DNA of 64,000 nucleotides from Candidatus Omnitrophota bacterium (GTDB lineage Bacteria > Omnitrophota > Gorgyraeia > Duberdicusellales > 4484-171): assembly GCA_037146775.1 (NCBI GenBank), contig JBAWWL010000005.1, positions 102,241 to 166,240 of the forward strand, written 5' to 3'. Of the stretch, positions 20,569 through 64,000 are shown one piece after another. The position numbers and the translations under genes were made by a program. How positions within the stretch are numbered: position 1 is the stretch's first letter; each line of letters starts with the position of its first letter. The notes below the pieces were generated by a model. It worked only from the letters and a program-made list of their open reading frames with translations, had not been told where the DNA came from and ran no database searches.

Positions 20569-20703
20569 GCCGGATGAAGGTGAAAAAGTATCAATGTATT
20601 CGGCTTCGGAGGAATTTCTCCGTAATCATTAGATTGATGGAGAATCCCTCCCATGATCTGCCGGAGGCAGCGCGGGCGGTAAAATAAGGTGTTTCATTTG
20701 CGG
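20569..20703 (+). ncRNA. Conserved structured intergenic element (copy 2 of 2)
   Basis: Alignable to 7624-7790. It shares the 5' 'GCCGGATGAAGG', the GGAG/CTCC hairpin, 'GATGGAGAA.CCC' and the 3' 'TAAAATAAGGTG.TTCATT' that pairs with the 5' end. It lies about 46 nt upstream of the ZIP transporter gene. Confidence 0.4.
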
Positions 20704-47486: not shown

Positions 47487-49652
47487 ATGGAAGCGAAAGT
47501 AATATCTTTTTTTAGTACCAAGGGAGGCGTCGGTAAAACACTTGTTTCGTTAAACGTTGCCGTTCAGCTTGCCATACAGAACAAGCGTGTTTTCCTTTTG
47601 GACCTTGATTTGGGCGCACCTCAGGCCACATCGAAATTGATCGGTGTTGACAGCAAATACTGCCTTTTTAACCTCATCGACTATCTCAAAGAATTCAAAG
47701 AGAAAAAAAGAAAAGTAGATAATTATGCGGTAACGTATCAGAATATAATGTTTTTGCCTTCCATTTTTAAAATGTCTCAAAGAACAGCTTTTACTCCCCA
47801 GGTAGTAAAAGATTTTATCTCGGTTATCTGGGACGATTTCGATTACATCATCATCGATGCGGGCAGTAATCTTACCGATAACCTTATCGCGGCACTGGAA
47901 TGCTCAAACCTTATCAGCTTGATTCTTACCCCGGATATTCTGGCGGTATATCAGACACAGTGGCTTATGGACACGTTACAGAGCTTAGGGTTTCCGCTCA
48001 CCATGATTAAGGTGGTGCTGAACCGTGCCGAAAGCAAAGGCTCTATTACCTGGCAGGAGGTAAAGGCATTGCTCCCGGCTGAGACTATAGCTCTCATCCC
48101 TTCGGAAGGCAGGGCTGCCGGCCTTGCCGTTAACCGCGGAGTGCCGCTGGTACTTGATAGCCCGCAGTGCCGGTTTACTCTCGCTATTCAAAAGCTATCC
48201 AAGGATATTGTCGAACGAAAAGACATGTATATCAGCCACAAAAGCCTTTCCGACGTGCGTCTGGCCAAAGAAAAATTTGAGGGAGGAGAAGAGGCTTTCT
48301 GGCAGCGCGTAGGAGTTATAGAACGCGAAGAGAAAGTGGCGTTGATTGAGGAAGAGGATGAAATTATCCGCTTCAAGAAACAAGTCCACGAAAGGCTTAT
48401 CGAAGAGCTTGATTTGAAACGTCTTCATATTGAAACGTACGCCACGAGTCCTCAGAAAATGAATGAGCTAAGAGCCAAAGCGGAAAAGGTGATTTCTAAT
48501 GTTATCAGCAAGGAAGCGGGTGGTTTTATTTCTGCCACCGAGGTACGCAGGCAAATTACCAAGGATATTCTGGAAGAAGCTCTTGGTTTGGGCCCACTCG
48601 AGGACCTTTTGCGTGATCCTACGATAACCGAAGTAATGGTAAACAATAAAGACCAGATCTACATTGAACGCTTTGGTAAGTTAGAGGTAACCAGCAAAAA
48701 ATTTACCACCAACGAACAAGTGAGGATTGTTGTTGAGCGTATCTTGGCGCCGCTGGGCAGACGTATTGACGAGTCGGTTCCTTACGTGGATGCCCGTCTT
48801 CCCGACGGCTCCCGTGTAAACGCAATTATTCCGCCCCTTTCTCTTACTGGCCCCACTCTGACCATAAGAAAATTTGCCAAACAGCGCTGGGGTATGGAGG
48901 ATTTGATAAACCGTTTCGGAAGCCTTACCCATGATATGGCGCTTTTTCTTGAAGCTGCGGTAAGGTCGCGTAAAAATTCGCTTGTTTCCGGAGGCACCGG
49001 TTCGGGGAAAACTACGTTTTTGAATATCTTGTCTGCCTATATTCCCGACAGTGAACGTATTATTTCTATAGAAGATGCGGCTGAATTGAAATTGCGCCAG
49101 GCTCACTGGATTCGTTTGGAATCCCGTCCGCCCAACATCGAGGGCAGAGGCGAAATTACTATCAGAGATTTATTCAGGAATACGTTGCGTATGAGACCGG
49201 ACAGGATCATCGTCGGTGAAGTGCGAGGCAGGGAAGTGTTGGACATGCTTCAGGCAATGAACACCGGCCATGACGGCAGTATGTCTACTATTCACGCCAA
49301 TTCCACACATGACGTTTTAATCAGGCTTGATAGTATGATTTTGATGAGCGGCGTAGAGTTACCGCTGCGTGCTATTAGAGAACAGGTTTCTTCGGCGATT
49401 AACTTAGTGGTTCATACCGCCCGTCTTTCCGATGGTTCGCGTAAAGTAATAGCTATCACTGAAATCATTGGCATGCTTGATGAGACGCATATTAATATGC
49501 AGGACATATTTGTGTATCGCCAGACCGGTGTAGATAAAGATGGCAATGTTCAGGGGTATTACACACCGCTTGGTTATATTCCCACTTTTTACGATGAAAT
49601 CAGGGCCAGAGGTATTGATTTATCCAGGGAAATATTCGTTCCTAAGGATTAA
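47487..49652 (+). CDS. Fusion of TadZ/CpaE-like ParA/MinD ATPase domain and TadA/CpaF secretion ATPase
   Basis: The N-terminal '[22 protein letters not shown]' is a deviant Walker A within a MinD-like domain (approximately 260 aa). The C-terminal approximately 400 aa is CpaF-like ('[13 protein letters not shown]', '[12 protein letters not shown]', His box '[12 protein letters not shown]'). Confidence 0.8.
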
Positions 49653-49670
49653 CTTGTTGTTTGTCTTATT

Positions 49671-50744
49671 ATGGCACACGGTATAGAAAAGATCCAAAAA
49701 CTGCTGCAAGACCCGAAGATTACCGAAATAATGATTAACGGGTCGCGGGATACCTTCATTGAAATGGGAGGGTTAAAGAATCGCCTCCCAGATTGTATTT
49801 TCACCGAGGAAGACATCAAAGAGATAATTGACGAGTATTTTAATAAAGTAGGTAAACCCGTCAACTACTACAATCCTTTCGGCGACGTATGCATCGAAGA
49901 TGGTTCGCGTTTTAATATTATTACCTACCCGCTTGCCCGCTGCGGCACCTCATTAACTGTTAGAAAATTTAACCGTGAGCTCCACAGCCTGGATGATTTG
50001 ATAAAAGAAGGGACTCTCACCCGCAGGATGGCCGATTTTTTAATCGCTTGCATCCATGGCAGAATCAATGTTTTATTTTCCGGCGCTACCGGAAGCGGTA
50101 AAACCACGACCATGGAAATGCTTTCTTACCATATTCCCGAACAGGAACGTATTGTTACCATTGAAGACACCGCGGAACTTCAGCTGCATCATCCCAATTT
50201 AGTACCCATGGAAACACGTTCTCCCGACCAGGATGGAAAAGGAGAAGTGACTTTGCGCGATCTGATACGTAACGCTTTACGTATGAGGCCGGACAGGATT
50301 ATCGTCGGTGAGGTGCGAGGTCCTGAGGCGTTGGATATGATTCAGGCAATGTCTACGGGCCATCGCGGAACGCTTGGAGTCATTCACGGTAACTCTCCGC
50401 AAGAAATAACCAGCCGTCTTGAAACGCTCATTCTTTCTTCCGGTATACGCTTGCCGCAGGAAGAGATACGCAGGATGATCGGTAACACCCTTAATGTGAT
50501 TATTCAGCAGGAGCGGTTTCCTGACGGAGTAAGGCGTATTACTCATATTTCAGAGGCGCGTGGGGTTGAACGCGGAGAAGTAGCGTTGCAGGATTTATTT
50601 ATCTTTCGCCGTGAAGGTAAAACCCCTGACGGTAAAATCAAAGGTAAATTTAAGACCGTCATGAGAATGTATCCCCGCTTTTTTGCCGATTTCCAAAGGT
50701 TAAAACTGATGGATGAAACGATATTCGGCGAAGATTCTAATTAA
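49671..50744 (+). CDS. Second TadA/CpaF-type secretion ATPase (short form)
   Basis: '[14 protein letters not shown]', '[12 protein letters not shown]', '[12 protein letters not shown]'. It lacks the long N-terminal extension. Confidence 0.85.
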
Positions 50745-50821: not shown

Positions 50822-52273
50822 GTGACGGCTGCAAAGTGCGGGTTAGAAAAAAATATGCGCGCAAAAATCGACGCTCGTTTAAAAAATCTAGTAGTACGTC
50901 TGGCAAAAAGCAATAAAGGTTTGGGGGTGCGTTTATTGGCCAAACTTATCAAAGAGAAACACGGGATTGCTCTTTCTAAAAGCGCCGTACAGAATATTTT
51001 TAAGCAAGGGCATATAAAGCAATCAAGGGGGAGGAAAACTTATCTTTCGCGCTATCAACGCAAAGATATTGTTCCCTGCGGATTTTTGCTGCTTAAAGCC
51101 ATAGATTCTCAAGTCGGGCTCTTTGATTTACTTACGGACCAACTACGAATGTATTTTGCGCGCATGCAGCCGGCATTATTGAAAAAAATCATTATGCTGG
51201 TTACTTTTTCTTCCTATCAAGGCCTCACCACCAAAGTGTCCGCACGGGAACCCGGTTTCTTACGTATCACAGATCTACGCTCTTACCCTGCCAGAAAAGT
51301 TAAGTTTTTTCTCTCGCGCATCGCCGACTACAAGCCCTTAGTGACTGTTGAAAAAATAAAGCCTCTGCTTGAGCCTGTTTCGACAGTAAAATTCTACTTT
51401 GGTAATAACACCGTAGGTTATACCGACGCTAATTTTTCTACTATTTGGGACAGCCCTTGCCGTATTAGCCATTTTTTTCAACCCTATTATTATGTGCTTT
51501 CGAGGCTTTCGGCTATGCTTCGAGACCAGACACTCATTCTTTATTATACGCAAAGTTTTAATTATCTTTCGCCTTTAGTGGTAAGTTTTATCGATGGTTT
51601 AGCTACGGGCATTACCAAGGTAGAATTGCTTGGCCCCAGTGGTGCAGTTATACACCAAGAAAACCATGCTATCCCTAAGCTTTCTTTCTTGATCGGCTAT
51701 TATCCCAAGATAATCGCAAAAGGAATGACCTTTTTAGAGAAAGAGCAGCATTTTAAAAAAGTGGAGGGCTTTTGGCAAGATTTGTCTTACGCGTATATTC
51801 TTACCCGATTTTCGCAGCCCAAAGGGAACAAAGGAATCATCACAAACAGTATTCTGGTAAAAACCATAAAGAAATCTCTTCCTTCCTGGGCTGTGCTTAC
51901 CGATAAAAGGACTAATATCGCCGCACTACTGAAACGTTATTTGTTACTCTGGCCGTATCGGGAAAAGACGTTTCTTGAAGATATGAAAATTATCGAGCGC
52001 TCTTACGTTTTTGAGGAAAGTAAGAAAGATACTCAGTTGCCTGCCCTCACAAGCCTCACCCTAGAGAAAGAATCGGATTTTCTCCATATTGCCGAACTAT
52101 TAGCCGCTCTTTTTAGCGCGCGTGTAGCCCAAGCAAAGTTTAAAGAATTGTCGGGCGAATATGTAACAGGTAAGGAATCCTGCCGGTTGGTTATCACCAG
52201 CCCCCCGGCGTTTAAGGAAAAATTTAACATGAATTGTTTCTTTCTTGGTGGTAAACGCGTTATTTTGCTCTAA
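50822..52273 (+). CDS. Hypothetical soluble protein embedded in the Tad locus (N-terminal HTH-like segment)
   Basis: 483 aa with no TM helices and no recognised domain. The N-terminal 'LGVRLLAKLIKEKHGIALSKSAVQNIF' looks HTH-like. A start at ATG 50855 is also possible. Confidence 0.4.
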   Translation: MTAAKCGLEKNMRAKIDARLKNLVVRLAKSNKGLGVRLLAKLIKEKHGIALSKSAVQNIFKQGHIKQSRGRKTYLSRYQRKDIVPCGFLLLKAIDSQVGLFDLLTDQLRMYFARMQPALLKKIIMLVTFSSYQGLTTKVSAREPGFLRITDLRSYPARKVKFFLSRIADYKPLVTVEKIKPLLEPVSTVKFYFGNNTVGYTDANFSTIWDSPCRISHFFQPYYYVLSRLSAMLRDQTLILYYTQSFNYLSPLVVSFIDGLATGITKVELLGPSGAVIHQENHAIPKLSFLIGYYPKIIAKGMTFLEKEQHFKKVEGFWQDLSYAYILTRFSQPKGNKGIITNSILVKTIKKSLPSWAVLTDKRTNIAALLKRYLLLWPYREKTFLEDMKIIERSYVFEESKKDTQLPALTSLTLEKESDFLHIAELLAALFSARVAQAKFKELSGEYVTGKESCRLVITSPPAFKEKFNMNCFFLGGKRVILL

Positions 52274-52606
52274 GTCTGCCTTGTCCTCTCCAGGGGTACT
52301 GCCTCTTGGAAGTATTTTTCACTGCTTTCCGCGCAGCAATTATTTTAGATTTTACCAGAAATACCGTAAAATTTACCCAAAAAAGAGTATCCATTCCGTA
52401 TTCCAAAAACCCCCACGATTTCCCGATCTTACGAGAGATTAATTTTTTGATAGAAGAATAGACGATTATATTCACTATAAACGATTTCAAAAATATCCTT
52501 TCTCATTCTTAGACTATCTTTCTGCGTATTGGGAAAATAGCCAAATTCGGCAATACCAGATTGAATTTTTTAAAAAGTAAACGCTTCCAAAAATTGCTTA
52601 TCCTAC

Positions 52607-52643
52607 CTTGATTTACGCGTAAAAAATATGGTATACTTAGTTG
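52607..52643 (+). promoter_or_regulatory. Putative sigma70 promoter for the pilin array
   Basis: 'cTTGATTtacgcgtaaaaaatatggTATACTtag' is a -35-like element, an approximately 18-nt spacer and a -10 TATACT. Confidence 0.4.
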
Positions 52644-52788
52644 TGAATTAGGAGGCGACGAAAAGGCAATTCCCGGTGTAAGCCGGGATGCGCAAAGCCA
52701 CGGGTCCCGAACGTTTGCAGGTTGTAGGTAATAAGTATTAATTTAAGTGTCTATACTTATCACCTACATATTAATGAAGGAAAGGGAT

Positions 52789-52840
52789 AGCCGAGCTGCC
52801 GAACGTCTCGAAAGAGCGGCAGTTCGGCTATTTTTATTTT
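52789..52840 (+). promoter_or_regulatory. Strong hairpin + U-run in the pilin leader (attenuator/terminator-like), directly before the first pilin RBS
   Basis: 'agccgagctgccgaacgtctcgaaagagcggcagttcggct' is a 13-bp stem, followed by 'atttttatttt' and then 'aggagg'. Confidence 0.4.
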
Positions 52841-52854
52841 AGGAGGCCAAAAAG

Positions 52855-53160
52855 ATGAAAACAAAAAAGATATCGGCGCAGTCAGTCATTGAATATATTT
52901 GCGTAACCATGGTGTTTGCTGCCGTGGGTATAGGAACTTTTGTTGCGGCAAACCATGCGGCAGTAGCGAATCTGCGCGGTCATGGCACCAACTATCAGTC
53001 TCAGACTAACCTTATGGGTCAAACCACCTATGCCGGTATCGACAAAGAACAATACAACTGGCCTTCTACTTGGGATCAGGCATATCCGGGAACAAGCAGC
53101 AAGCAGGTTCGCCAATTTGTGGATAATCCGGAACAAACTTCAGGACAAGGAGGAGAGTAA
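52855..53160 (+). CDS. Flp/Fap-family type IVb prepilin-like protein 1
   Basis: 'MKTKKISA|QSVIEYICVTMVFAAVGIG' has a class III signal-peptide motif (A|QSxxEY) plus a hydrophobic helix. Confidence 0.7.
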   Translation: MKTKKISAQSVIEYICVTMVFAAVGIGTFVAANHAAVANLRGHGTNYQSQTNLMGQTTYAGIDKEQYNWPSTWDQAYPGTSSKQVRQFVDNPEQTSGQGGE

Positions 53161-53339
53161 TGTTAGCCCATATCAGAAAATCAAAGGCGCAGAGTATTCT
53201 TGAATACGTGTCGTTAACGCTTATTGTATGGGGAGCGTTGTCGGCAATGACATTTTATATTCAGCGGGCGATGGAAGTAAGGACCCGGCATCTTAACCAG
53301 GAATTAAACGAGAATGCCAGAGGAAATGGGATGATTTAA
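53160..53339 (+). CDS. Flp-like prepilin 2 (59 aa, below ORF-track cutoff)
   Basis: ATG overlaps the previous stop (taATG). 'MLAHIRKSKA|QSILEYVSLTLIVWGAL'. Confidence 0.6.
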   Translation: MLAHIRKSKAQSILEYVSLTLIVWGALSAMTFYIQRAMEVRTRHLNQELNENARGNGMI

Positions 53340-53353
53340 AAGGAGCGAGAAAC

Positions 53354-53800
53354 ATGAAGCAACATAACCATAAAATCATGGCTCGAGGGCAAAGCATAAC
53401 AGAGTATTTGATCGTGTTAGCAGCTATTATCGGCGCTATTGTGGCCAGCACTATCGGCATACGTTATGGGGTAAACAGAGGTATGAAGACCGTTAATGAA
53501 AAATTTGAAAAAGGCATTGCTACCAGCAGCGTTCCGGGAAAGCAAAAGGCATATTTACAAACGGAAGAGTCTTACGATGATTCAAGACAGCATAAAACTG
53601 ACCCGGCATGGGAAAACACCGATCAGCCAGGAGGCCCTCAGTATACTGGTGGCTATGAATATGAGGAGTGGGTGCGTAATAATCCCGACAGCGCTTACAA
53701 TGCGCCGGAAGATGGGAAAACATTATATGATACCGGCGTTAAACCGTATCCGGCAAAAAATTATTGGGTAGGCAATGTCAGGGGGCAGAAAGGTAAGTAG
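53354..53800 (+). CDS. Flp-like prepilin 3 with extended C-terminal domain
   Basis: 'MARG|QSITEYLIVLAAIIGAIVA'. 148 aa. Confidence 0.7.
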   Translation: MKQHNHKIMARGQSITEYLIVLAAIIGAIVASTIGIRYGVNRGMKTVNEKFEKGIATSSVPGKQKAYLQTEESYDDSRQHKTDPAWENTDQPGGPQYTGGYEYEEWVRNNPDSAYNAPEDGKTLYDTGVKPYPAKNYWVGNVRGQKGK

Positions 53801-53808
53801 GCGTTTTT

Positions 53809-53973
53809 ATGTATAGAAAAACAAAAGCACAGAGTTTTATCGATTATGCAGCGTTAATTGCGATTATTGTGGTATCGCTGCTAGCCATGTCCGGCTATGT
53901 TATGCGGTCAATTAACGCGAGGGTTGCCCACATGTGGGCGGATTTATATCATCCACAAAACGGAGTAAGGTAG
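53809..53973 (+). CDS. Flp-like prepilin 4 (54 aa, below ORF-track cutoff)
   Basis: 'MYRKTKA|QSFIDYAALIAIIVVSLLAM', identified by manual translation. Confidence 0.6.
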   Translation: MYRKTKAQSFIDYAALIAIIVVSLLAMSGYVMRSINARVAHMWADLYHPQNGVR

Positions 53974-53989
53974 GAGGAGGTGAGTTGTA

Positions 53990-54172
53990 ATGGTTAAGAA
54001 GGCGCAGAGTATTCTCGAGTACGTCATCGTTCTTTCAGCTATCGTAGCAGCAGTTATCGCAATGGCAAGAGGTCCGGTAACGCAGGCGGTAAACAAAATG
54101 TTTACTGATTCATCTAACGTGATCCAGGAGAAGTCGGGCATTTTTTATCAGCAGTCAGCCGGTGGTAAGTAA
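53990..54172 (+). CDS. Flp-like prepilin 5
   Basis: 'MVKKA|QSILEYVIVLSAIVAAVIA'. Confidence 0.7.
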   Translation: MVKKAQSILEYVIVLSAIVAAVIAMARGPVTQAVNKMFTDSSNVIQEKSGIFYQQSAGGK

Positions 54173-54201
54173 GGGGTATTATTCTTGAAGGAGGTGTGAA
54201 A

Positions 54202-54516
54202 ATGTTAACCAGACGTAAAAAGGGACAATCAGTAGCGGAATACGCGATCTTAATTTCTCTTTGCGTTGCCGCATTTATGGGGATACAGAACGAAGTACGC
54301 AGAGCTATTCAGGCTCGCGTTCACGACGCGGCAGTAGAACTAACGCAAGGCGGCACATGGCAATATGAGCCTTCTGCAGGCGTTAAGACGACCACGAACC
54401 AGAAGTCAGAGCGTATTAAAGATGAAAACTGGATTGATAAGGGTGACGTGGATTCAGTGTATCAGAAAGTTGCAGATACCAACAGCGCTGATTACAAATC
54501 CGACGAAACGAAATAA
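54202..54516 (+). CDS. Flp-like prepilin 6
   Basis: 'MLTRRKKG|QSVAEYAILISLCVAAF'. RBS 'gaaggagg' is 7 nt upstream of ATG 54202. Confidence 0.7.
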   Translation: MLTRRKKGQSVAEYAILISLCVAAFMGIQNEVRRAIQARVHDAAVELTQGGTWQYEPSAGVKTTTNQKSERIKDENWIDKGDVDSVYQKVADTNSADYKSDETK

Positions 54517-54567
54517 GGACGCTTATTATTTTATTTTATTACGCACATAACTTAAGGAGGTGCGAAC

Positions 54568-54921
54568 GTGTTAACCAGATGTAGAAAAGCACAAAGTACT
54601 CTTGAATATGCCCTTCTCATCGGAGTGGTGGTAGGAGTGCTGTTGACCATGCAGAACTACTTAAAAAGAAGTATGCAGGGTAAATTACAGGCTACCGCTG
54701 ATGAAATGGGCGAACACTATTCTCCTGGCGATACGAAACGTCACGAACGTCTCTATTCGTCAATCGACAGCGTGACTGAAACGTCGATTTATGGAAAAGC
54801 ATCCGATACTTCCGGTGAAGTCGGAAGAACCCGCACCGTTATTAAGGGCGGAAAACAAGAGCAGGCGGCCACCAGAGAAAACCGCGGTCTTGACAGAGAA
54901 AGATGGGAGCACAAGAAATAA
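54568..54921 (+). CDS. Flp-like prepilin 7 (GTG start)
   Basis: 'MLTRCRKA|QSTLEYALLIGVVVGVLL'. RBS 'aaggagg' precedes it. Confidence 0.65.
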   Translation: MLTRCRKAQSTLEYALLIGVVVGVLLTMQNYLKRSMQGKLQATADEMGEHYSPGDTKRHERLYSSIDSVTETSIYGKASDTSGEVGRTRTVIKGGKQEQAATRENRGLDRERWEHKK

Positions 54922-55001
54922 ATTCCGCCGGGCTTACGCATCGTTGGTGTCAAGTATGGGCAGGGGTGTAAAGTAGTTGTAGTAAACTGAAAGGATGAAT
55001 A

Positions 55002-55328
55002 ATGTTAATGAAACGTAAAGCAGTGACTGTATTGCAGTACAGTTTCCTTATCGCAGTAACGGTGGGAGTATTGCTTACCATGCAAAATTACATAAAACGC
55101 AGTATGCAAGGGCAATTGCAGACTTATAGCGATTCCATGGGTGAGCAATACTCCCGGGGACTGACGAATATACACGACCATTATTCATCCACAGCGAAAA
55201 CCACAGAATGGAAGCTACCCACATTCAATATACGCGGTAATGGCGGCGACTGTACGCATACTCAGGGAACATATACGGCCACCTCGGAACGAGAGCTTTT
55301 ACCTCTTGATGCGGAGCGCTGGAATTAA
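55002..55328 (+). CDS. Flp-like prepilin 8 (variant motif)
   Basis: 'MLMKRKA|VTVLQYSFLIAVTVGVLL', with Q in place of the E+5 residue. Its paralogy to prepilin 7 is evident ('LTMQNYIKRSMQG'). Confidence 0.6.
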   Translation: MLMKRKAVTVLQYSFLIAVTVGVLLTMQNYIKRSMQGQLQTYSDSMGEQYSRGLTNIHDHYSSTAKTTEWKLPTFNIRGNGGDCTHTQGTYTATSERELLPLDAERWN

Positions 55329-55357
55329 CAAACCGTTTTAAGAGCAGCTATAAAAAC

Positions 55358-56035
55358 ATGAATGTAACCAATAAAAGAACAGATTGTTACCGATACGGTT
55401 ATAAAAAGGCACAGTCTTTTCTGATGTACGCCTGTTTAATTGGCATAGTTATCGGAGTACTGTTGACCATGCAGCGTTATATCGGCAGAAGCATGCAAGG
55501 GCTTCTGAAGCAGAATCTAGATAATATGGGCGGTGAAAAAGTGTCCGGTAAACAATATAGTCCTGGACGCTGGTTTGGTTCAAAGAGTTTAGTGCGGGTT
55601 AATACCAGTGGTTTTGACTACGAAGGCAGACATGGTTTTGGTGTGAATATTGCGAACAGCCAGCGTAGCGAATCCGTCCGTATCACCGATACAATTAACC
55701 CCGGAGACCTTCCCCCGGTAAATTTAGATACTAAAAGCGTGCTTGACGGAGAGGATAAGCGGTTGATCCAAGATACGTATGGTTCTGATTTTGATCCGGG
55801 TATAAATAAAGTGGAAAATAATGTGAATGGTGGCGTCCGTGACTGGGAGTATGTGTCGGAGAAAGCGCCGGATAGTGTTGGCGCCAATGCCGACGAGAAT
55901 TTCGATCAGAGAACAAAAAACACCTTTGGCGAACATATTCCTGAGTCCTCTACCGCGGGCGCGGTGGGCGAAAGCAAGGGGCCTAACTACGAAGGAGAAG
56001 CCGGAACCAATTTACCAGAAAATAAGGCACAATGA
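55358..56035 (+). CDS. Flp-like prepilin 9 with large C-terminal domain (225 aa)
   Basis: 'YKKA|QSFLMYACLIGIVIGVLLTMQRYIGRSMQG'. Confidence 0.6.
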   Translation: MNVTNKRTDCYRYGYKKAQSFLMYACLIGIVIGVLLTMQRYIGRSMQGLLKQNLDNMGGEKVSGKQYSPGRWFGSKSLVRVNTSGFDYEGRHGFGVNIANSQRSESVRITDTINPGDLPPVNLDTKSVLDGEDKRLIQDTYGSDFDPGINKVENNVNGGVRDWEYVSEKAPDSVGANADENFDQRTKNTFGEHIPESSTAGAVGESKGPNYEGEAGTNLPENKAQ

Positions 56036-56427
56036 GAAAAGCAAACGCTATTATTGAATATACATTTATTATTGCTATAGTAATTAGTGCTCTTGCGGGC
56101 ATGAATGCGTATTTAAAACGCGTAGTGCAGGCGCACATTAAAAGAGAAACCGATGAGCACTTATATATGCCTTCATCTTTCTTATGGCAAAGTTCAGTTA
56201 CTTTTCGCAGGCAAGAAACCGAGCATGACCGCCGTGAATATGCTCACGGCGATACAGTGGTCAATGTAACCAGTCGCAGTCCGTCGGTGAGTTTGCATGC
56301 GCCTTCTCCGCCCGGGGTTCCGGTGGCGGGTATACATGCGCAGGATGCAGCGTCAGCGCCTCCTGGCCAGAGTAACCCAAGTAATCCGACGAGCGATGAG
56401 CAAACCGAAGTGCCAGCGGCAGATTAA
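56032..56427 (+). CDS. Flp-like prepilin 10
   Basis: 'MRKA|NAIIEYTFIIAIVISALAG'. Start overlaps the previous stop (ATGA). Confidence 0.65.
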   Translation: MRKANAIIEYTFIIAIVISALAGMNAYLKRVVQAHIKRETDEHLYMPSSFLWQSSVTFRRQETEHDRREYAHGDTVVNVTSRSPSVSLHAPSPPGVPVAGIHAQDAASAPPGQSNPSNPTSDEQTEVPAAD

Positions 56428-57032
56428 TGTATTTTATGAAGACCATGAAAAAATTATTTAGCAAAAAAGCCCAGGCAATGGTAGAGTTGGCAATCCTGGG
56501 GCCCCTGCTTTTAATGGCGGTTGGCCTGGTGGTTACCTATGTAGCCAAGATGAATAATGACCAGTGGGTATTGATGGAGGCATTTCGCCGGGCACTCGCC
56601 CATTCTCATGACGAAAACAAAAATGTTGGCTACGGCACCTATGATGACCGCAGAATGGCTTCAGTGCAGGAGCCGATTCTCGGCCAAAAAACTCCTTCAA
56701 GCGGCTCTGCTTGTGTGGTGTGGTCAATTCCCTCGGTAGACGGAGATGGCCAGGACCCTCAAAGTACCACTATTGTAAAAGTAAACGGTGGCATCTGGGC
56801 GATTCCTGGTTATAATGAATATGATCTTGGGCCAGGCGCCGGCGGCGGCGTAGAACCCCTTTATTTAACTGCCAAAGGTTCGAATCTTACTGTTAAAACC
56901 GAAGACGGGGTGACTACCTCAACCCGTTCTGGCGGAGTGGGCGAGTTCATGTTATATAAAATCAATAAAAAGAATCATCCGCAGGGCCGTGGTAGCGGAG
57001 ATTCACGTACCTTTACCGGCCATGCTGACTAG
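56427..57032 (+). CDS. TadE-like pseudopilin
   Basis: 'KKAQAMVELAILGPLLLMAVGLVV' resembles the TadE N-terminal motif (G/A-x-VEFALV-P). Alternative starts at 56436 and 56445. Confidence 0.6.
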   Translation: MYFMKTMKKLFSKKAQAMVELAILGPLLLMAVGLVVTYVAKMNNDQWVLMEAFRRALAHSHDENKNVGYGTYDDRRMASVQEPILGQKTPSSGSACVVWSIPSVDGDGQDPQSTTIVKVNGGIWAIPGYNEYDLGPGAGGGVEPLYLTAKGSNLTVKTEDGVTTSTRSGGVGEFMLYKINKKNHPQGRGSGDSRTFTGHAD

Positions 57033-57081
57033 CGGGTAATATAAACTGTTGTTGTTTTATGGAGACTTAAGGAGGAGACGG

Positions 57082-57342
57082 ATGCGAACGAGAAAAGCCC
57101 AAAGCATATTAGAATCAGTGCTTGCCTATGTTGCCGGAACCGCGCTTTTAGGTGCGGCTATGGGTATTTTTGCCTGGGGCATAGCACATATTCCGATTAG
57201 ACAGGTTACTTATGAGGCAACGCGCATTATTGCCGGAACTCCGCGTTGTCGTATGGTGGATAAAGACGGCGCAAAAAAAACAGGTATCGGCAGTATGCCG
57301 GTTTGGCCGACTTATTTTGTCGGCGGCGGAGTTACGCCATAA
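57082..57342 (+). CDS. Flp-like prepilin 11 (variant)
   Basis: 'MRTRKA|QSILESVLAYVAGTALLGAAMGIFA'. RBS 'aaggagga' precedes ATG 57082. Confidence 0.55.
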   Translation: MRTRKAQSILESVLAYVAGTALLGAAMGIFAWGIAHIPIRQVTYEATRIIAGTPRCRMVDKDGAKKTGIGSMPVWPTYFVGGGVTP

Positions 57343-57427
57343 TAAGTGCTATGATAATGTTAAAAGTTTTATGAAAGACTATGGATAAAAGTATTGAATT
57401 TAAAGGGATATTGTCACCGGAGGAGGG

Positions 57428-57590
57428 AAACTCTAAATCCTAAACCCTAAATAAACTCAAAATGAGCCAAACCCAAAACCCACAACGAGATGAATTAAGA
57501 CAAAAGCCTTGTATTTTTTAATGTTTTGAGTTTGGGGTTTGATATTTTGGATTTGTTTAGAGTTTAGAGTTTCGGGTTTAGAGTTTAAAA
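57428..57590. repeat. Heptamer-built palindromic repeat family, copy III (longest)
   Basis: Left arm 'aaaCTCTAAATCCTAAACCCTAAAtaaactcaaaa...'. Right arm '...ttttgagtttggggtttgat...gTTTAGAGTTTAGAGTTTcgggTTTAGAGttt'. Arms of about 60 nt each around an approximately 35-nt loop. Confidence 0.5.
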
Positions 57591-57639
57591 AAACAGAAGA
57601 TAGTTTTGACAATACCGAAATTATAAAGAGGAGGCATTT

Positions 57640-59331
57640 ATGCTTACCTATATGAGAAAAAATATCAAAGCATGTACCAGCCATAACGGCCAGGTTGCGG
57701 TGTATTTTATCGGAGCTATGGCCACCTTAGTGGTAGTGGCTTTTATTATTATTAATATAGGTAAGACTGCCAAAGATAAAACTCATGCGGATAATGCCGC
57801 TGACGCAGCAGCCTTAGCCGGCTGCTCAGTCATGGCTACTTCCTTTAATTATTCTTCTCATGATAACAGTAATGAGCCTCGAGGCGTTGGCGTGCCCGGG
57901 CCAGCAGCAAGTACGGGTTCTCAGGTATCCCTTTCTAATTCCGGCTATAAAGCTGCCATAGGAGGCATGATGCACCGGCATTTCCAACAGGCGCGTAATG
58001 AGTATAAACGCAAAGCTACAGAAGCTAAACGTAAAGCCAGAAAAAATTCTATGGAACGCTCAAACGAGAACCAAACTTCTATGTATGACCCGAGCGCTTT
58101 TGCTGCAGAGAGCGCGGATTATCAAGCTTCCAAAGAAGGCGAAGCCAACCGTTTTAATATCGAACAACAACAGATAGCAGCTGAAGAGTGGAAAGCTTGG
58201 TCTGACCAGCAATATATGGCAAGGTCGTATACTGTTGATAAGCCTGGTTTTGGTTTTGCCGGGACCGGAGGCTCTGTCGGGTTAAGCGGCACTAGTAGGG
58301 TCGCATCTCTTAGTAACGTGCCTACCCCTCAGCCTAGCGATGGTGACGCGGGAGTCGGTGATCCTTATGGTGAAAATGCTGCTTCATCTGGAGAGGCAAA
58401 ATCTTCAGATTACCACAGCCAAGCTTTAGTAGTAGCCTATAAAGTTCTTTTTCAGAATGCGGGCATTCATCACCGTTTGGGCCGTTTAACCAGCAAGATG
58501 TATGAAAAGTTCTTAGAGGGTATTAGCGAGGGAACCGTGCAAAGCGGTATGCCGCTTACTTTCTGGTGGGTGGATGGTGCTGCGCGTTTTCACATGGTGA
58601 CTGGCGTGGTAGAAATCGAATCTGCCAACAAGCATCAAAAAAGAACTACTCCTGGTGGCGGCGCTGGCGCTGCTTCAGTAGCTGCCAGTTTATCTTCTGG
58701 TTGGAAAGGAAAATTTGCTATGACTGGCATTATGGGTTTGCGTATGTCTTCCATGCAATCAGCCACCGGCTATAGCACCCATACCGGACTCAATTCCACT
58801 GCTAAAGGTCATGATATTACCGCCCAGAACCCTTGTTTGTACCCGATCTTCCGGCCCTTAGGTATGGCTACTTCAGGTGCGGCTGAGGGAACTGCGCGTG
58901 GCCAGGGAGATACGCCCAGTGAAATGCATCAGGCTTTAAACGGCGGTGACGCTTTGCCTACTGCTGGTTTAGTCAGTGCTGGATCAAGTCCGATGGGAGC
59001 GGCTTCTATGAAGCTTGCGGTAGGGGGCGGCCCCACTAGCGGAGATCCTACGTATGCTGGTACCATGAGTGACGGAACTCCTAGCGACGATAATGCGGTG
59101 AGAGATGATGAGATTGTTAATTCCCGTATGGTTATGGCTTCCTGTTTTCAGTTTCATATGGGTAGCCCCATTAAAGGCATTGCTGCGGATATCGATGTAA
59201 TGACTTTTTATCCGCCGGTGGTAAGCATGGCAGTAGCCAGCTTTAACTATACTGGTATGGGCAACATTGCTCGTGCTAGTGGCGATGGTTCTGATGCGCG
59301 GCATGAATGCGGCTTGGTAGCAGCATTCTAA
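57640..59331 (+). CDS. TadG-like pilus-assembly protein (TadE/G-like N-terminus, large Gly/Ala/Ser-rich C-terminal region)
   Basis: N-terminal 'NGQVAVYFIGAMATLVVVAFIIINIGKTAKDKTHADNAADAAALAG' matches the TadG-like motif (...QxAADAAALAGA). Confidence 0.6.
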   Translation: MLTYMRKNIKACTSHNGQVAVYFIGAMATLVVVAFIIINIGKTAKDKTHADNAADAAALAGCSVMATSFNYSSHDNSNEPRGVGVPGPAASTGSQVSLSNSGYKAAIGGMMHRHFQQARNEYKRKATEAKRKARKNSMERSNENQTSMYDPSAFAAESADYQASKEGEANRFNIEQQQIAAEEWKAWSDQQYMARSYTVDKPGFGFAGTGGSVGLSGTSRVASLSNVPTPQPSDGDAGVGDPYGENAASSGEAKSSDYHSQALVVAYKVLFQNAGIHHRLGRLTSKMYEKFLEGISEGTVQSGMPLTFWWVDGAARFHMVTGVVEIESANKHQKRTTPGGGAGAASVAASLSSGWKGKFAMTGIMGLRMSSMQSATGYSTHTGLNSTAKGHDITAQNPCLYPIFRPLGMATSGAAEGTARGQGDTPSEMHQALNGGDALPTAGLVSAGSSPMGAASMKLAVGGGPTSGDPTYAGTMSDGTPSDDNAVRDDEIVNSRMVMASCFQFHMGSPIKGIAADIDVMTFYPPVVSMAVASFNYTGMGNIARASGDGSDARHECGLVAAF

Positions 59332-59346
59332 AGCAGGCAGCTGGCT

Positions 59347-60237
59347 ATGAAAAATTATAAATTTTTTATTTTTGGTTTCTTTCTTCTATTTTTCCTGCCT
59401 TTTTTAGCCGAAAGCCAAACAGCTCCCCCTGACACCCCGGCATTCCCCTTACCTATGCATACTGAAAAAATCGGAGAAAGAACCGAAGAGGTTGACGGAT
59501 TTGTTAATACTTTTTACCAATATTTTTCTCAGCTTTCTAGCCAAGAAATTATTGAATTTTACCGTAATGCATTAGTCGAGCAGGGCTTAGAGGAGGTAGA
59601 GGTCTCTCCAGGTCCGGCTTCCGTTGCAGTACATTTTGCTAAAGGTAAAAGCAGAATTGTTTTCGTAGTACTTTATATTTGGAATAAGCCGCTCGACCAG
59701 TGGGCCAAGGAAGATGAAGGAAAGACCGTATATTTTCTCAATGTTTTCGATAATCGCGATGTTTTACAGCTGGCTAACGCCGAATTTAAATATCCGGACA
59801 GGCTTAGCTTCGCTCCGGTGTATCCCCAAGCCAAGCAGTTTTGTTTACGCGATGAGCCTTCTAAATGGAAAGTTGCTGCTTACTTAAGCGACGGCGAGGT
59901 TGAAAAAATAGCTAACTTTTATATGAAAGAAATGCCGCAGTATAATTGGAAGTTTACCGGTACCAATAGTTATGAAAGCAACCAGAATATTGTCGACGCT
60001 CTCTTAAACGGCGACCCTAACCCGAAAAAACTTTCCGGAGAAGAAATGATGCCGGGAGTAACCGTAGACGTGAAAGGAGCCACTTTAACGTATGCACAAG
60101 GAGACGGTAAACGTTGTGCTATCAATATTATGCAGTTTCGTGATCCGCCGGACGTGCTCGCGCAGCACAGAATTAACCCGAGTGCTTTTAAAAAATACGG
60201 CAATATTTATATCAGTTTAGTGGTGTATGACCAGTGA
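59347..60237 (+). CDS. Secreted protein, paralog family member 1 (unknown function)
   Basis: Signal peptide 'MKNYKFFIFGFFLLFFLPFLAES'. Shares 'xxFYRNALVEQG...' and the C-terminal pattern with the 60453 and 61307 proteins. Confidence 0.55.
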   Translation: MKNYKFFIFGFFLLFFLPFLAESQTAPPDTPAFPLPMHTEKIGERTEEVDGFVNTFYQYFSQLSSQEIIEFYRNALVEQGLEEVEVSPGPASVAVHFAKGKSRIVFVVLYIWNKPLDQWAKEDEGKTVYFLNVFDNRDVLQLANAEFKYPDRLSFAPVYPQAKQFCLRDEPSKWKVAAYLSDGEVEKIANFYMKEMPQYNWKFTGTNSYESNQNIVDALLNGDPNPKKLSGEEMMPGVTVDVKGATLTYAQGDGKRCAINIMQFRDPPDVLAQHRINPSAFKKYGNIYISLVVYDQ

Positions 60238-60282
60238 AATTTTACTTGTGTATGGAATAGTTTACAATAAAATATAAATGGT

Positions 60283-60450
60283 AGTTATGAAAAATAAAAG
60301 ATCCAAATCTCAGGCAATACTCACCTACGCAGCGCTTATCGCTATCGTCATTACCGTGCTTATTATTATGTGGGGCTATATCCAGCGCCGAGTGCAGGGT
60401 GTGTACCAGGCAGCTGGCGATTCTATCGGCGAAGGCGAGCAGAAAGATTA
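60283..60450 (+). CDS. Flp-like prepilin 12 (55 aa, below ORF-track cutoff)
   Basis: Manual translation gives 'MVVMKNKRSKS|QAILTYAALIAIVITVLIIMWGYIQRRVQG...'. Confidence 0.5.
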
Positions 60451-60452
60451 AC

Positions 60453-61295
60453 GTGGCTTTTAAAAAATATATAACAAGCTTATTCTTCCTGATAACTTTT
60501 TTTCTGCAATGTTTTGTGTGTGCGGCTGACTTGCCTTGTCCCGCTTCAAGTGAATTAGTCCAACAATCACAACAGGATACCGCGAATATGAATAATACGA
60601 GCTATGAATACCGCTCCAAACTTTCTAAAGAAGAAATAACTTCCTTTTACCGTACCCTATTTCTTACACAAGGCATGAAAGAAAATCCTGCCACAAAAGA
60701 TACTCTGGTATTTGCAAAATTCCCCCAAAAAATAGTGACCATTACTTTTAGCTCGGATCCGGACGGCCAAGTACGTTTTATGTTTACGAAAAGCGAGTTT
60801 ACCAAGATGCAAATTGTGCCTACCCAGGATTTCAAAAGTCCGCAAACTCTCGATTTTATGCCTACCTATACCCAAAGCCAACAATTTGTCTATAACACTT
60901 TTTACTATCCGATGATCGGCATAGCGTATCTTTCGCGCAGCCAACCCGATGATGTGGCTGGTTTTTATACCAAAAGAATGTCTTCTTTTGGCTGGCAGCT
61001 GGCTTCCGATACACCGCAGCAGGGAACGTACGATCTTTTTGCCTGGATAAGGGTAATTGATCCCTTCACCAAGGCAATACCAATGCTTCAGGTTACCGGA
61101 TATCAGGAATTGGCTCCGCCGCTTAAGCTTCGCGGTAGAACGCTGACCTTTAAACAGGAGGGCAAAAGCTGCACTATTACCATTTATAAATTCGAAGATA
61201 TTATTGCTAAGGCTCAAGGTACTGCCTGGGATGCGAGTCCTTTTCAGCAATATGGCGATACGGTTATTGCGGTGTATTATTTTTCAAAAACATAA
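60453..61295 (+). CDS. Secreted protein, paralog family member 2
   Basis: A GTG start just after the prepilin-12 stop gives the signal peptide 'VAFKKYITSLFFLITFFLQCFVCAA'. 'SFYRTLFLTQGM' and the end '...VIAVYYFSK' parallel member 1. The longer ATG ORF (60399) overlaps the prepilin gene. Confidence 0.5.
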   Translation: MAFKKYITSLFFLITFFLQCFVCAADLPCPASSELVQQSQQDTANMNNTSYEYRSKLSKEEITSFYRTLFLTQGMKENPATKDTLVFAKFPQKIVTITFSSDPDGQVRFMFTKSEFTKMQIVPTQDFKSPQTLDFMPTYTQSQQFVYNTFYYPMIGIAYLSRSQPDDVAGFYTKRMSSFGWQLASDTPQQGTYDLFAWIRVIDPFTKAIPMLQVTGYQELAPPLKLRGRTLTFKQEGKSCTITIYKFEDIIAKAQGTAWDASPFQQYGDTVIAVYYFSKT

Positions 61296-61306
61296 AGAGG
61301 TGAACC

Positions 61307-61804
61307 ATGGACTATAAACGCGTTATTTTTTTATTCGCTTGGTTTTTTGTTTTTATTGCTGCCATGACTCAAACCGAAAAGCTTACAAAGCTTACCCCGC
61401 GTAATACCGAATTAATTGACCGCCGGCAGCAAAAACCAGAGCAGTATGTTACGGTAACAAACTATAAGTATGCTACCTTAGCTCGCCAAGACGAAGTAGT
61501 GCAATTTTATCGCAAAATGTTTACAAACGACGGCTTTTCTGAAGTACGTGGCTATTCGCCTGATGGCCAGTCTCAGGGGCCCATTCCACAGTCTCAGTCG
61601 TTCTTTTTCTTTACCAAGCCCAATACTATGGTTATGCTCAATTTGCTTCTACAGCAAGAGAGGGGCCGGCATATTTACTATGTTACCGTCAACGAACTTG
61701 ATTCCAAAGCCGCTAAAACTTTTGTTAATGAAATGAATCAAAATACGGGTGCCCAAGAAGGACCTCTTGAGTCTGAAGCAACCGAGGTAACTCCGCAAGA
61801 GTAA
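61307..61804 (+). CDS. Secreted protein, short paralog family member 3
   Basis: Signal peptide 'MDYKRVIFLFAWFFVFIAAMTQT'. 'VQFYRKMFTNDGFSE' shares the FYR motif with members 1 and 2. Confidence 0.5.
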   Translation: MDYKRVIFLFAWFFVFIAAMTQTEKLTKLTPRNTELIDRRQQKPEQYVTVTNYKYATLARQDEVVQFYRKMFTNDGFSEVRGYSPDGQSQGPIPQSQSFFFFTKPNTMVMLNLLLQQERGRHIYYVTVNELDSKAAKTFVNEMNQNTGAQEGPLESEATEVTPQE

Positions 61805-62787: not shown

Positions 62788-63633
62788 GTGTTATATTTTT
62801 CTTACATTCTGCTTACTGCCGCAATCGTTATATTTTCTTACTACGGCGTAACGATGGCATTAAAGCAGTGGGACCAAACCCAGAAGCGCCGCGCAGAAGA
62901 AGTTACCTCCCAGTTCGAGAACATGTTTATCTTCATTAACAAGAAGATGCTTCTTCTTCTCTTTCCTATTGTTGCGCTGGCTCTGGCAGCCCTGGGTTAT
63001 ATCTTTACGAAAAAATGGTGGATTGGCGCCGTTCTTTTAGCGGTCGGTTTTTTAGCCCCTTCCTGGGTCATGCATCAGCTTGACCAGCGCCGCCGGAAGA
63101 AATTTGTCCTGCAGCTGGTGGACGGCCTGATGATTATGAACAGCTGTTTAAAGGGAGGCCTTACCTTAACTCAATCGTTTGAGGTTTTAGCCGAGGAGAT
63201 GGCTCCGCCGCTAAGCCATGAGGCGGCGCTCTTAAACCGCGAGATTAAAGTCGGCGTCACACTCGAAGAGGCGCTTTTGCGTCTTGAGCGCAGGATGCCG
63301 TCGGAAGAAATGACCTTAGTTACTTCAGCGGTATTGGTGGCGAGAGAGACCGGAGGAGATCTTACAAAAGTATTTTCGCGATTAGTTGAAACCATCCGTG
63401 ATAGGATTAAACTTCGCGAGCTTGTTACCACACTCACCTTGCAGGCGCGCCTGCAATCCATTGTAATTTCACTCTTGGGCCCTGTATTTTTTATAACGGT
63501 GCGTAAAATACAACCTACGCATTTTGATATCATGATGCAGGATGATCTGGGGCGAATGCTTTTAGGTATTGCGCTTATTTTGCAGATACTAGGTATTGTG
63601 TTGATTGTTATCTTTGGAAAGATAGAAGTATGA
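62788..63633 (+). CDS. tadB: Tad pilus inner-membrane platform protein TadB (GspF-like domain)
   Basis: N-terminal TM, a cytoplasmic T2SSF-like helical domain ('...FEVLAEEMAPPLSHEAALLNREIKVGVTLEEALLRLERRMP...') and C-terminal TMs. Confidence 0.75.
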   Translation: MLYFSYILLTAAIVIFSYYGVTMALKQWDQTQKRRAEEVTSQFENMFIFINKKMLLLLFPIVALALAALGYIFTKKWWIGAVLLAVGFLAPSWVMHQLDQRRRKKFVLQLVDGLMIMNSCLKGGLTLTQSFEVLAEEMAPPLSHEAALLNREIKVGVTLEEALLRLERRMPSEEMTLVTSAVLVARETGGDLTKVFSRLVETIRDRIKLRELVTTLTLQARLQSIVISLLGPVFFITVRKIQPTHFDIMMQDDLGRMLLGIALILQILGIVLIVIFGKIEV

Positions 63634-64000
63634 TTTGGCTTGCTTCGTTATTATTGGTTGCTGGTTTTGTGATTTTTTTTATCGGTTTATATCCGCGGCC
63701 GTCAGAGACGATCTCTATTTTCGGCAAAAATATAAAAGAATCGGAATCCCTATTTTCTTTTTTCTTAAGCCCCTTTGCGCCTCTCAATGAAGGCCTTTTG
63801 AAAATTTTCCGAGTAGACAAAGCGCTTAAAGATAAATTATATTTGGCACGTTGGAGGACTACCGCGGCTGAATTTCTCGCCGCTAAGGAATTACTTGCAA
63901 TTTTTTTACCGCTCATTCTCTTCCTTTTCGGGGTCAATAATGTCTGGTTCTTGCTGGCTGCCGGCGCTTTCGGTTTCGTATTTCCTGAGTTACTCATCAA
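63630..64000 (+). CDS. tadC: Tad pilus platform protein TadC (partial, runs off window end)
   Basis: ATG overlaps the tadB stop (ATGA). 'MIWLASLLLVAGFVIFFIGLYPRP...LYLARWRTTAAEFLAAKELLAIFLPLILFLF' is a TM plus T2SSF-like helical domain. No stop before position 64000. The ORF track shows only the antisense frame. Confidence 0.6.
   Translation, partial: MIWLASLLLVAGFVIFFIGLYPRPSETISIFGKNIKESESLFSFFLSPFAPLNEGLLKIFRVDKALKDKLYLARWRTTAAEFLAAKELLAIFLPLILFLFGVNNVWFLLAAGAFGFVFPELLI

Follow-up and report, generated by a model that had tools for sequence, protein, structure and literature searches.

A 64-kb stretch of Candidatus Omnitrophota DNA (contig JBAWWL010000005.1, positions 102,241–166,240; hereafter the window) carries a Tad/Flp-type pilus locus in which 14 co-oriented prepilin-like genes lie behind a class I cyclic di-GMP (c-di-GMP-I) riboswitch. 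The array probably serves as the pilin operon for a filament machine of the Tad type (type IVc, archaeal-Epd-derived), conserved within one Candidatus Omnitrophota lineage, that combines one major pilin with many minor ones. Omnitrophota are abundant, uncultivated and ultra-small, and are believed to be epibionts or predators of other cells. Few conserved candidates exist for their contact or secretion organelle, and the Tad-like locus is among them; a parts list and a testable regulatory switch are now available for that organelle.

A prepilin array of thirteen small genes

Thirteen small forward-strand genes with a prepilin motif occupy 52855–57342 and 60278–60451, as judged from the open reading frame (ORF) listing and an alignment. 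A preliminary description, made from the sequence alone, had counted about 12 Flp-like genes here; the small prepilin genes are real, and their number is 13. Their shared N-terminus consists of a short basic leader, the motif [A/G/S]↓Q-[S/A]-x-x-E-Y (↓, predicted cleavage site) and a hydrophobic stretch of ~19 residues (best 19-residue Kyte-Doolittle mean 1.6–2.8). The class III motif and helix described earlier were recovered: all 13 proteins have the basic leader, small −1 residue and hydrophobic helix of a type IV prepilin with a class III signal peptide, and MAFFT alignment yields the consensus KAQSxLEY...Y..R. An AGGAGG-type ribosome-binding site precedes most of the genes.

The motif is confined to this locus. 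A regular-expression search of all six frames across the 64 kb returned 12 matches, all within 52855–60451 and none elsewhere, and a hidden Markov model (HMM) built from the prepilin N-termini added the divergent member at 55002. The large TadG-like protein (57640–59331) carries a matching cleavage-type motif, K/N-G↓Q-V-A-V-Y (NG↓QVAVY), bringing the prepilin-like genes to 14.

Position +5 is not uniformly acidic. Among the 13 small prepilins it is Glu in nine, Asp in one (53809) and non-acidic in three, at 55002 (Gln), 55358 (Met) and 60278 (Thr); the TadG-like protein likewise has no acidic +5 in any species, and OG13, the orthologue group of the 60278 gene, has a non-acidic residue (T/M/G) there in every orthologue. 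Replacement of Glu+5 had previously been assigned to 55002, 55358 and 57082. The first two assignments stand, but the third gene, which we place at 57049, keeps Glu+5 (QSILES) and changes Tyr+6 to Ser; nor was the list complete, as 60278 and 53809 also lack Glu+5.

Beyond the helix, the proteins have tails of about 20 to about 190 amino acids (aa), much as first described. We named the genes by orthologue group. OG01 (52855–53160, 101 aa) has a long acidic tail whose length varies among orthologues, OG02 (53160–53339, 59 aa) is short with a conserved RHLxQELNE tail, and OG03 (53354–53800, 148 aa) has a variable polar tail. OG04 (53809–53973, 54 aa, Asp+5) is among the best-conserved short members, and OG05 (53990–54172, 60 aa) comes closest to canonical Flp in architecture. 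OG06 (54196–54516, 106 aa) is followed by OG07 (54568–54921, 117 aa), which shows a weak Class_IIIsignal match and is named 'hypothetical protein WCI77_05600' at NCBI; OG08 (55002–55328, 108 aa, Gln+5) and OG09 (55358–56035, 225 aa, Met+5, with a long acidic tail) are OG07 paralogues. OG10 (56032–56427, 131 aa) has Asn/Ser at +1, OG11 (56427–57032, 201 aa) is a TadE-like minor pilin with 31 orthologues, and OG12 (57049–57342) measures 97 aa as the longest ORF or 86 aa in the NCBI call, with Glu+5 and Ser/Ala at +6. The last member, OG13 (60278–60451, 57 aa), has no NCBI gene call on the source contig but is called in a Logan assembly, which shows that annotation misses small pilin genes.

Paralogues share little at the DNA level. 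The longest shared stretches measure 26–49 nucleotides (nt) at 69–92% identity, and the array DNA contained no silent cassettes, long near-identical repeats, or invertible elements with flanking inverted repeats. Antigenic variation by recombination was rejected on these grounds.

OG12 and the TadG-like gene are 300 nt apart, and this gap holds a separate repeat. This long imperfect inverted repeat (57427–57586; arms of ~24 nt at 88%) is part of a ~150-nt hairpin with a folding z-score of −4.5. Related loci have a gap of 30–90 nt, and the repeat resembles a window-specific insertion, perhaps an element similar to a miniature inverted-repeat transposable element (MITE).

The array is fixed across related Omnitrophota

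The array is an old, fixed set of non-redundant genes rather than a recently expanded or recombining repertoire. We compared ten loci: the window, L002, L003, L004, L005, L006, L009, L011, L017 and L021. Five species representatives with ATPases 75–81% identical to that of the window (L002, L004, L005, L006 and L009) hold 11–13 members each, which best-hit assignment pairs one-to-one with the window genes in the order OG01 to OG13. The truncated contigs L003, L011 and L017 show the same array beginning, and the more distant L021 has eight members. Because every small gene can be paired with a separate orthologue at the corresponding position in other species, the genes appear to be non-redundant parts of one structure.

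Whether the array is unusually large, as had been claimed, depends on the comparison. The claim holds against 63 Tad loci of other phyla, which gave 0–2 detector matches per locus within 10 kb of the ATPase, versus 5–9 in those seven Omnitrophota loci whose arrays are fullest and three in truncated L017; the detector, a generic [G/A/S]xxxxE[Y/F...] pattern plus helix, makes this a crude baseline. Within the lineage it fails, as 11–13 genes in the same order are ordinary there, the very outcome that the preliminary description had named as telling against it.

Conservation is highest near the N-terminus, with orthologue identities of 45–74% over the first 30 mature residues and 27–63% in the tails. 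OG02, OG04, OG05 and OG13 are short, and their conservation extends along the whole protein; for OG04, identity is 56–69% in closer loci and 44–56% in L011 and L021. The tails of OG01, OG03 and OG09 are long, polar and mostly acidic, and vary between species from ~15 to 200 residues with charges down to −30. Such strongly species-variable acidic tails leave some room for species-specific surface adaptation. The antigenic or adhesive variation proposed earlier is otherwise not supported, given fixed copy number and order, the lack of cassettes and invertible elements in the array DNA, and a single riboswitch-controlled promoter.

A riboswitch and terminator precede the array

A 580-nt gap 5' of OG01 holds a promoter-like site, a riboswitch aptamer and a terminator, all on the forward strand. 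The promoter-like site (52608–52637) is a consensus match only, TTGATT-18-TATACT with TG. The aptamer (52655–52803) is of the c-di-GMP-I (GEMM-I) type with a large insertion in its second hairpin; it scores 40.5 bits against Rfam RF01051 (gathering score 35), and a clan variant was matched at E = 8.5e-6. Directly 5' of the first pilin gene, the aptamer recurs above the gathering score in L002, L006, L011 and L021 (38.8–46.1 bits); it is present below that score in L004, L005 and L009 and recognisable by sequence in L003 and L017. A ATGGTATA(T/C)T box recurs 5' of the aptamer in related loci.

The intrinsic terminator (52785–52839; RNAfold ΔG −28.3 kcal/mol) overlaps the 3' strand of the aptamer and consists of a hairpin followed by the T-run TTTTTATTT, 25 nt 5' of the ATG. 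Equivalent hairpins (ΔG −14 to −28) with T-runs occur in 10 of 10 loci with compensatory substitutions in the stem, the first aptamer hairpin shows many compensatory changes among loci, and the aptamer–terminator arrangement 5' of OG01 is likewise universal (10/10). The 5' arm of the terminator is the conserved 3' strand of the second aptamer helix, so the two structures are mutually exclusive and ligand binding should prevent termination. The leader architecture thus predicts an ON switch, although its ligand could be a related cyclic dinucleotide rather than c-di-GMP. Within the array, internal promoters or terminators, which might have marked the major pilin, did not exceed shuffled expectation.

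L021 carries a second, higher-scoring c-di-GMP-I riboswitch (20592–20686 of that locus; 60.6 bits) with its own terminator, just 3' of TadC. Next comes a signal-peptide ORF that extends beyond the end of the locus, and the site may correspond to the giant-gene position of the literature.

Divergent members of the Flp/Tad pilin lineage

Judged by their sequences, the small proteins are best placed in the Flp/Tad lineage of type IV prepilins, as divergent members overlooked by curated models. Profile searches of the small ORFs with Flp/Fap and TadE models, proposed in the preliminary description, gave none at Pfam threshold. Flp_Fap (PF04964, threshold 32.2 bits) found no match at all among window members, and the best window score against Class_IIIsignal (PF04021, threshold 23.7 bits) was 16.3 bits. 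A Pfam scan of 98 members from the window and related genomes returned 17 Class_IIIsignal matches (best E 1.1e-4; none shown above threshold), nine to Flp_Fap (best E 2e-4), nine weak and unexplained matches to DUF3290 and five weak ones to TadE. Two of nine OG05 orthologues matched Flp_Fap weakly, at 18.4 bits at best.

Failure to reach the Flp_Fap threshold is weak evidence, since only two of five bona fide Chloroflexota Flp pilins from Tad loci pass it and the other three are also below it. Direct profile alignment gave moderate support for kinship: hhalign matched the Omnitrophota N-termini to the Chloroflexota Flp pilins with 74% probability (E = 2.8e-5, 38 columns), in register on the cleavage motif (KAQSILEY with GQGLVEY) and running through the OG05 sequence. 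We considered Gln+1 as an archaeal-specific signal and rejected it, as bacterial Flp pilins of the Chloroflexota loci also read GQGLVEY.

Public databases label these proteins 'hypothetical protein', in some JGI entries 'UPF0333 family', and occasionally 'Flp'. A full HMMER scan retrieved 4631 representative clusters with this N-terminus, and among 75 word-index matches all those with an organism name were Omnitrophota. Pilin counts by Pfam/TXSScan-type models therefore underestimate Tad pilin repertoires in candidate phyla.

One member could be modelled with confidence. An AlphaFold2 model of OG11 from 31 orthologues (predicted local distance difference test score, pLDDT, 80.3) shows an N-terminal helix of 62 residues and, after it, a beta-sheet domain, which together give the 'lollipop' shape of a pilin. 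A profile search of PDB sequences with the family found nothing significant, the best matches being archaeal flagellins at E>1.

Tad machinery

By gene content, read from domain matches, this is a Tad-type (type IVc) machine, and the bacterium that encodes it is diderm. We found a TadA/CpaF-family ATPase, TadZ/CpaE, RcpC/CpaB, a secretin, two single-T2SSF platform proteins and a TadG-type pseudopilin, all encoded on the forward strand. RcpC/CpaB (45011–45814) matches Pfam RcpC at 6.2e-22, plus SAF. The RcpA/CpaC-like secretin (45827–47431) matches Secretin (2.8e-40) and T2SS-T3SS_pil_N (2.6e-11) and ends in a C-terminal TonB_C domain (3.2e-14), which is unusual among RcpA/CpaC-type secretins.

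Two TadA-family motors stand in tandem at 47487–50744. The first (47487–49652, 721 aa) is fused to a TadZ (ParA/MinD-like) domain, with AAA_31/ParA/CbiA matches at residues 4–195 and T2SSE at 7.5e-64; the second (49671–50744, 357 aa) matches T2SSE at 4.1e-46 and is at most 81% identical to proteins of Candidatus Omnitrophota metagenome-assembled genomes. Both have a TadA-family NCBIfam model as best match (1.4e-101 and 8.5e-77, respectively), under the equivalog cut-off. Characterised Tad systems use a single bifunctional motor, and the tandem pair here could be separate extension and retraction motors.

The platform and pseudopilin genes complete the set. A TadB/TadC-type platform protein with one T2SSF domain (62788–63633; 2.1e-18) is followed by a second one (63630–64000) that the window end cuts after three transmembrane (TM) segments; in the full contig (10843–11709 of locus L082) it is 288 aa long with PF00482 (T2SSF). 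TadE-like and TadG-like genes had been proposed on inspection. The TadG-like large prepilin (563 aa), named 'pilus assembly protein TadG-related protein' at NCBI, passes Pfam Tad PF13400 (33.8 bits, cut-off 22.3; E 4.3e-08), while the TadE-like OG11 falls short of TadE/TadF PF07811 (17.5 bits, cut-off 22.9; E 0.0045).

A model with one fibre and many minor pilins

We propose that the array supplies one filament. The 14 prepilin genes would be transcribed from one promoter, with a leader RNA that acts as the c-di-GMP-I riboswitch; at high c-di-GMP, the ligand-bound aptamer would hold the 5' arm of the terminator and permit read-through into the pilin genes. A prepilin peptidase, its gene lying elsewhere, would then remove the leaders by cutting between the [A/G/S] residue and Gln+1, and the TadZ–TadA fusion, the second TadA-like ATPase, TadB/TadC, RcpC and the secretin would assemble the pilins. 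OG05 (53990) would be the major subunit, a guess from its near-canonical Flp architecture, and the remainder minor pilins. A priming or tip complex would consist of OG11, OG12 and the TadG-like protein, with OG12 a possible TadF analogue. In type IV filaments, a missing acidic +5 is typical of the distal-most subunit, GspK being the classic case; here that distal position would fall to the Glu5-less OG13 and the TadG-like protein. The other Flp-like members would serve as adapters or decorations displaying polar, often acidic, species-variable tails. Of the mixed-subunit filament suggested in the preliminary description, one fibre with many minor pilins survives as our best reading, and the variable repertoire is unsupported.

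Several points weigh against this model. All window members stay below the Pfam gathering thresholds of Flp_Fap and Class_IIIsignal, and no small prepilin in the window matches any NCBIfam model. The beta domain of OG11 has no significant match among solved structures, and the AlphaFold2 model of the TadG-like protein (pLDDT 39, six sequences only) was unusable and left out of the fold search. A tadV/cpaA-type prepilin peptidase was not found in the 64-kb window, searched by GxGDxK motif in long ORFs, a TM-count filter and Pfam on every multi-TM ORF, or among the gene calls of the 7.8 kb downstream to the contig end; all multi-TM ORFs from this search in the window were other transporters. The major pilin and the tip arrangement are proposed by analogy, and ten Flp-like subunits exceed the adapter need of any characterised Tad system.

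A bolder version of the model seems unlikely, but its consequences would be considerable. It holds that the locus encodes a compositionally fixed, unusually complex Tad-derived filament, turned on directly by riboswitch-bound c-di-GMP, that works either as a prey- or host-contact pilus with an elaborate tip of several subunits or as a new kind of Tad-lineage secretion pseudopilus for the giant proteins of Omnitrophota. If true, the filament would serve these ultra-small bacteria as the effector organelle of an epibiotic or predatory lifestyle and would be the first Tad system with ~ten distinct Flp-like subunits in non-redundant structural positions.

The strongest competitor to the single-fibre model, which we still rate well below it, is a Tad-derived secretion system. 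Here the pilins would form a short periplasmic pseudopilus of the type II kind that exports the secreted paralogues encoded in the operon and, elsewhere, giant 'archaeovorin' proteins. Type II secretion systems characteristically have several minor pseudopilins, and this reading also draws on the three secreted paralogues inside the operon, the two ATPases and the second riboswitch of L021, which follows TadC and lies 5' of a signal-peptide ORF. A 2023 preprint (bioRxiv 10.1101/2023.11.21.568195) interprets this conserved locus of Omnitrophota as a secretion system with >10 subunits that precedes giant genes. However, no giant gene lies 3' of the present locus within the contig, where a Y1 transposase gene and reverse-strand genes occupy the stretch between TadC and the contig end, and the components are Tad-type (RcpC, TadZ, split TadB/C, TadG), with no GspC/L/M-type parts seen. 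At the sequence level, a pseudopilus and a pilus are indistinguishable.

It is improbable that the array instead provides alternative major pilins, with OG02, OG04, OG05 and OG13 each building its own fibre or a mixed heteropolymer for functional or antigenic diversity. Full-length conservation of these four Flp-sized members would fit such a repertoire, as would the great differences in length and charge between species in the OG01, OG03 and OG09 tails. But all members stand behind one riboswitch, with internal terminators no more frequent than chance; orthology is strictly one-to-one in a fixed order across species; cassettes, long repeats and invertible segments were not found in the array DNA; and OG13 never has the acidic +5 that polymerising subunits of type IV pili generally require. 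That the small ORFs are unrelated membrane proteins or non-coding frames with a hydrophobic N-terminus by chance is scarcely credible: they reach no curated family threshold and NCBI calls them hypothetical proteins, but their motif is in register in 13 genes and ~100 orthologues, they have ribosome-binding sites, counterparts in other species, 4631 representative clusters in the profile search and an hhalign match to Flp, and they sit inside a Tad locus.

Relation to known systems

The locus shares its core with canonical Tad/Flp systems (Aggregatibacter flp-tad, Caulobacter cpa and Pseudomonas flp-rcp-tad): a TadA-family ATPase, TadZ, two platform proteins, RcpC, a secretin, TadE/TadG-like pseudopilins, and short Flp-sized prepilins with Glu+5-Tyr+6 and no globular head. 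It departs from them in the number of small prepilins (13, as against ~1–3), in the fusion of TadZ to TadA and the second TadA paralogue, in the TonB_C-bearing secretin and in the lack of tadV/cpaA in the locus. Further differences are pilins that score under the Pfam Flp_Fap threshold, many with polar tails of 60–190 residues, a conserved 480-aa protein, the secreted paralogues and riboswitch control.

Riboswitch control of pilin genes has a parallel in Clostridioides difficile, whose pilA1 is under class II c-di-GMP riboswitch control. Both cases place a c-di-GMP aptamer in a type IV pilin leader with a terminator as expression platform and ON logic, which here is predicted. The Omnitrophota aptamer differs in belonging to class I (RF01051) and in the long insertion that its second hairpin carries, and its operon is Tad-type rather than type IVa.

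By analogy, the closest functional precedent is the Kil pilus of Myxococcus xanthus (PMC12075869), the Tad machine of a predator, as we presume Omnitrophota to be. Kil uses 15 pilins, the major KilP and 14 minor ones, which include four TadE/F/G-like triplets proposed as tips and two ~59-aa Flp-like adapters; the genes lie in several scattered loci and are partly redundant (PMC12075869). Both systems would thus combine one major with many minor pilins, small Flp-like members among them. In contrast to Kil, the present locus has one TadE/OG12/TadG set and ~ten distinct Flp-like genes in a single operon, each with one-to-one orthologues, and no type III secretion (T3SS*) partner was seen in the window.

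Archaeal EppA-dependent (Epd) pili offer an evolutionary comparison, an Epd-like system of archaea being the inferred ancestor of Tad systems (PMC6668835). The present pilins share with Epd pili, PF04021 and UPF0333 a [K/R]-[G/A]↓Q...E motif and short length, and 17 of 98 members match PF04021 weakly. Unlike those pili, they belong to a bacterial diderm setting with a secretin, and no match was shown above the PF04021 threshold. The GQ...EY motif is not specific to archaea, being shared by bacterial Chloroflexota Flp pilins.

Parts of this picture are already known. Tad complexes have been reported in Omnitrophota (Velamenicoccia; PMC10066038), and the 2023 preprint (bioRxiv 10.1101/2023.11.21.568195) describes this Omnitrophota locus type with rcpC, a Rotamase_2 peptidyl-prolyl isomerase (PPIase) and "many small genes" with class III signal peptides. 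Both sources also link Omnitrophota to c-di-GMP signalling (PilZ, GGDEF), but in their available portions do not report 13 ordered orthologue groups, TadE/TadG-like members or a riboswitch. The preprint locus precedes giant genes, whereas none lies within 7.8 kb on this contig. Relative to the searchable literature, four features appear to be new: 14 prepilins with 13 ordered orthologue groups, Glu5-less members, a family missed by curated models, and a conserved c-di-GMP-I riboswitch–terminator.

Neighbouring genes

The conserved locus begins with a PPIase gene (44022–44918; Pfam Rotamase_2 8.8e-14) on the forward strand. Related loci have a similar-sized ORF (~290–320 aa) with an N-terminal hydrophobic segment at this position; the Pfam domain was scanned in the window only.

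A conserved 483-aa protein (50822–52273, forward strand) is encoded before the riboswitch, and a terminator-like hairpin (52289–52310) follows its gene. Eight related loci have an ORF of 460–484 aa directly 5' of the pilin array, in most cases next to the ATPase 2 gene; L009 and L011 have other genes between the two. The protein has no PDB relative and shows only weak N-terminal matches to helix-turn-helix and transposase families (HTH_32 and ISNCY transposase). Possible roles are that of a regulator or of a machine component not recognised so far.

Three forward-strand genes near the 3' end of the array encode the secreted paralogues, whose mutual relationship was confirmed (25% identity; E 3e-27 and 2e-07). 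Paralogue 1 (59347–60237, 296 aa) has an N-terminal signal-like segment, paralogue 2 (60399–61295, 298 aa as the longest ORF) is called from 60588 as 235 aa, and paralogue 3 (61307–61804, 165 aa) comprises the N-terminal half only. The set (59347–61804) seems to contain an internal duplication; its sole annotation is a faint precomputed match to the new Pfam family PF27226 (AF_1845), noted for paralogue 1, and a word-index homologue search retrieved only the protein itself.

The rest of the window holds ordinary chromosomal housekeeping genes. In the full contig, a Y1 (IS200-like) transposase gene comes next after TadC, then several reverse-strand genes with no Pfam match, two of them 409 aa long, and then the contig end (11879–18626 of locus L082); no giant gene lies in these 7.8 kb, and the contig break may hide what normally follows the locus. 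In related locus L006, positions 68–139 match group II intron domain V/VI above the gathering score (47.7 bits), 5' of a PIN-domain gene.

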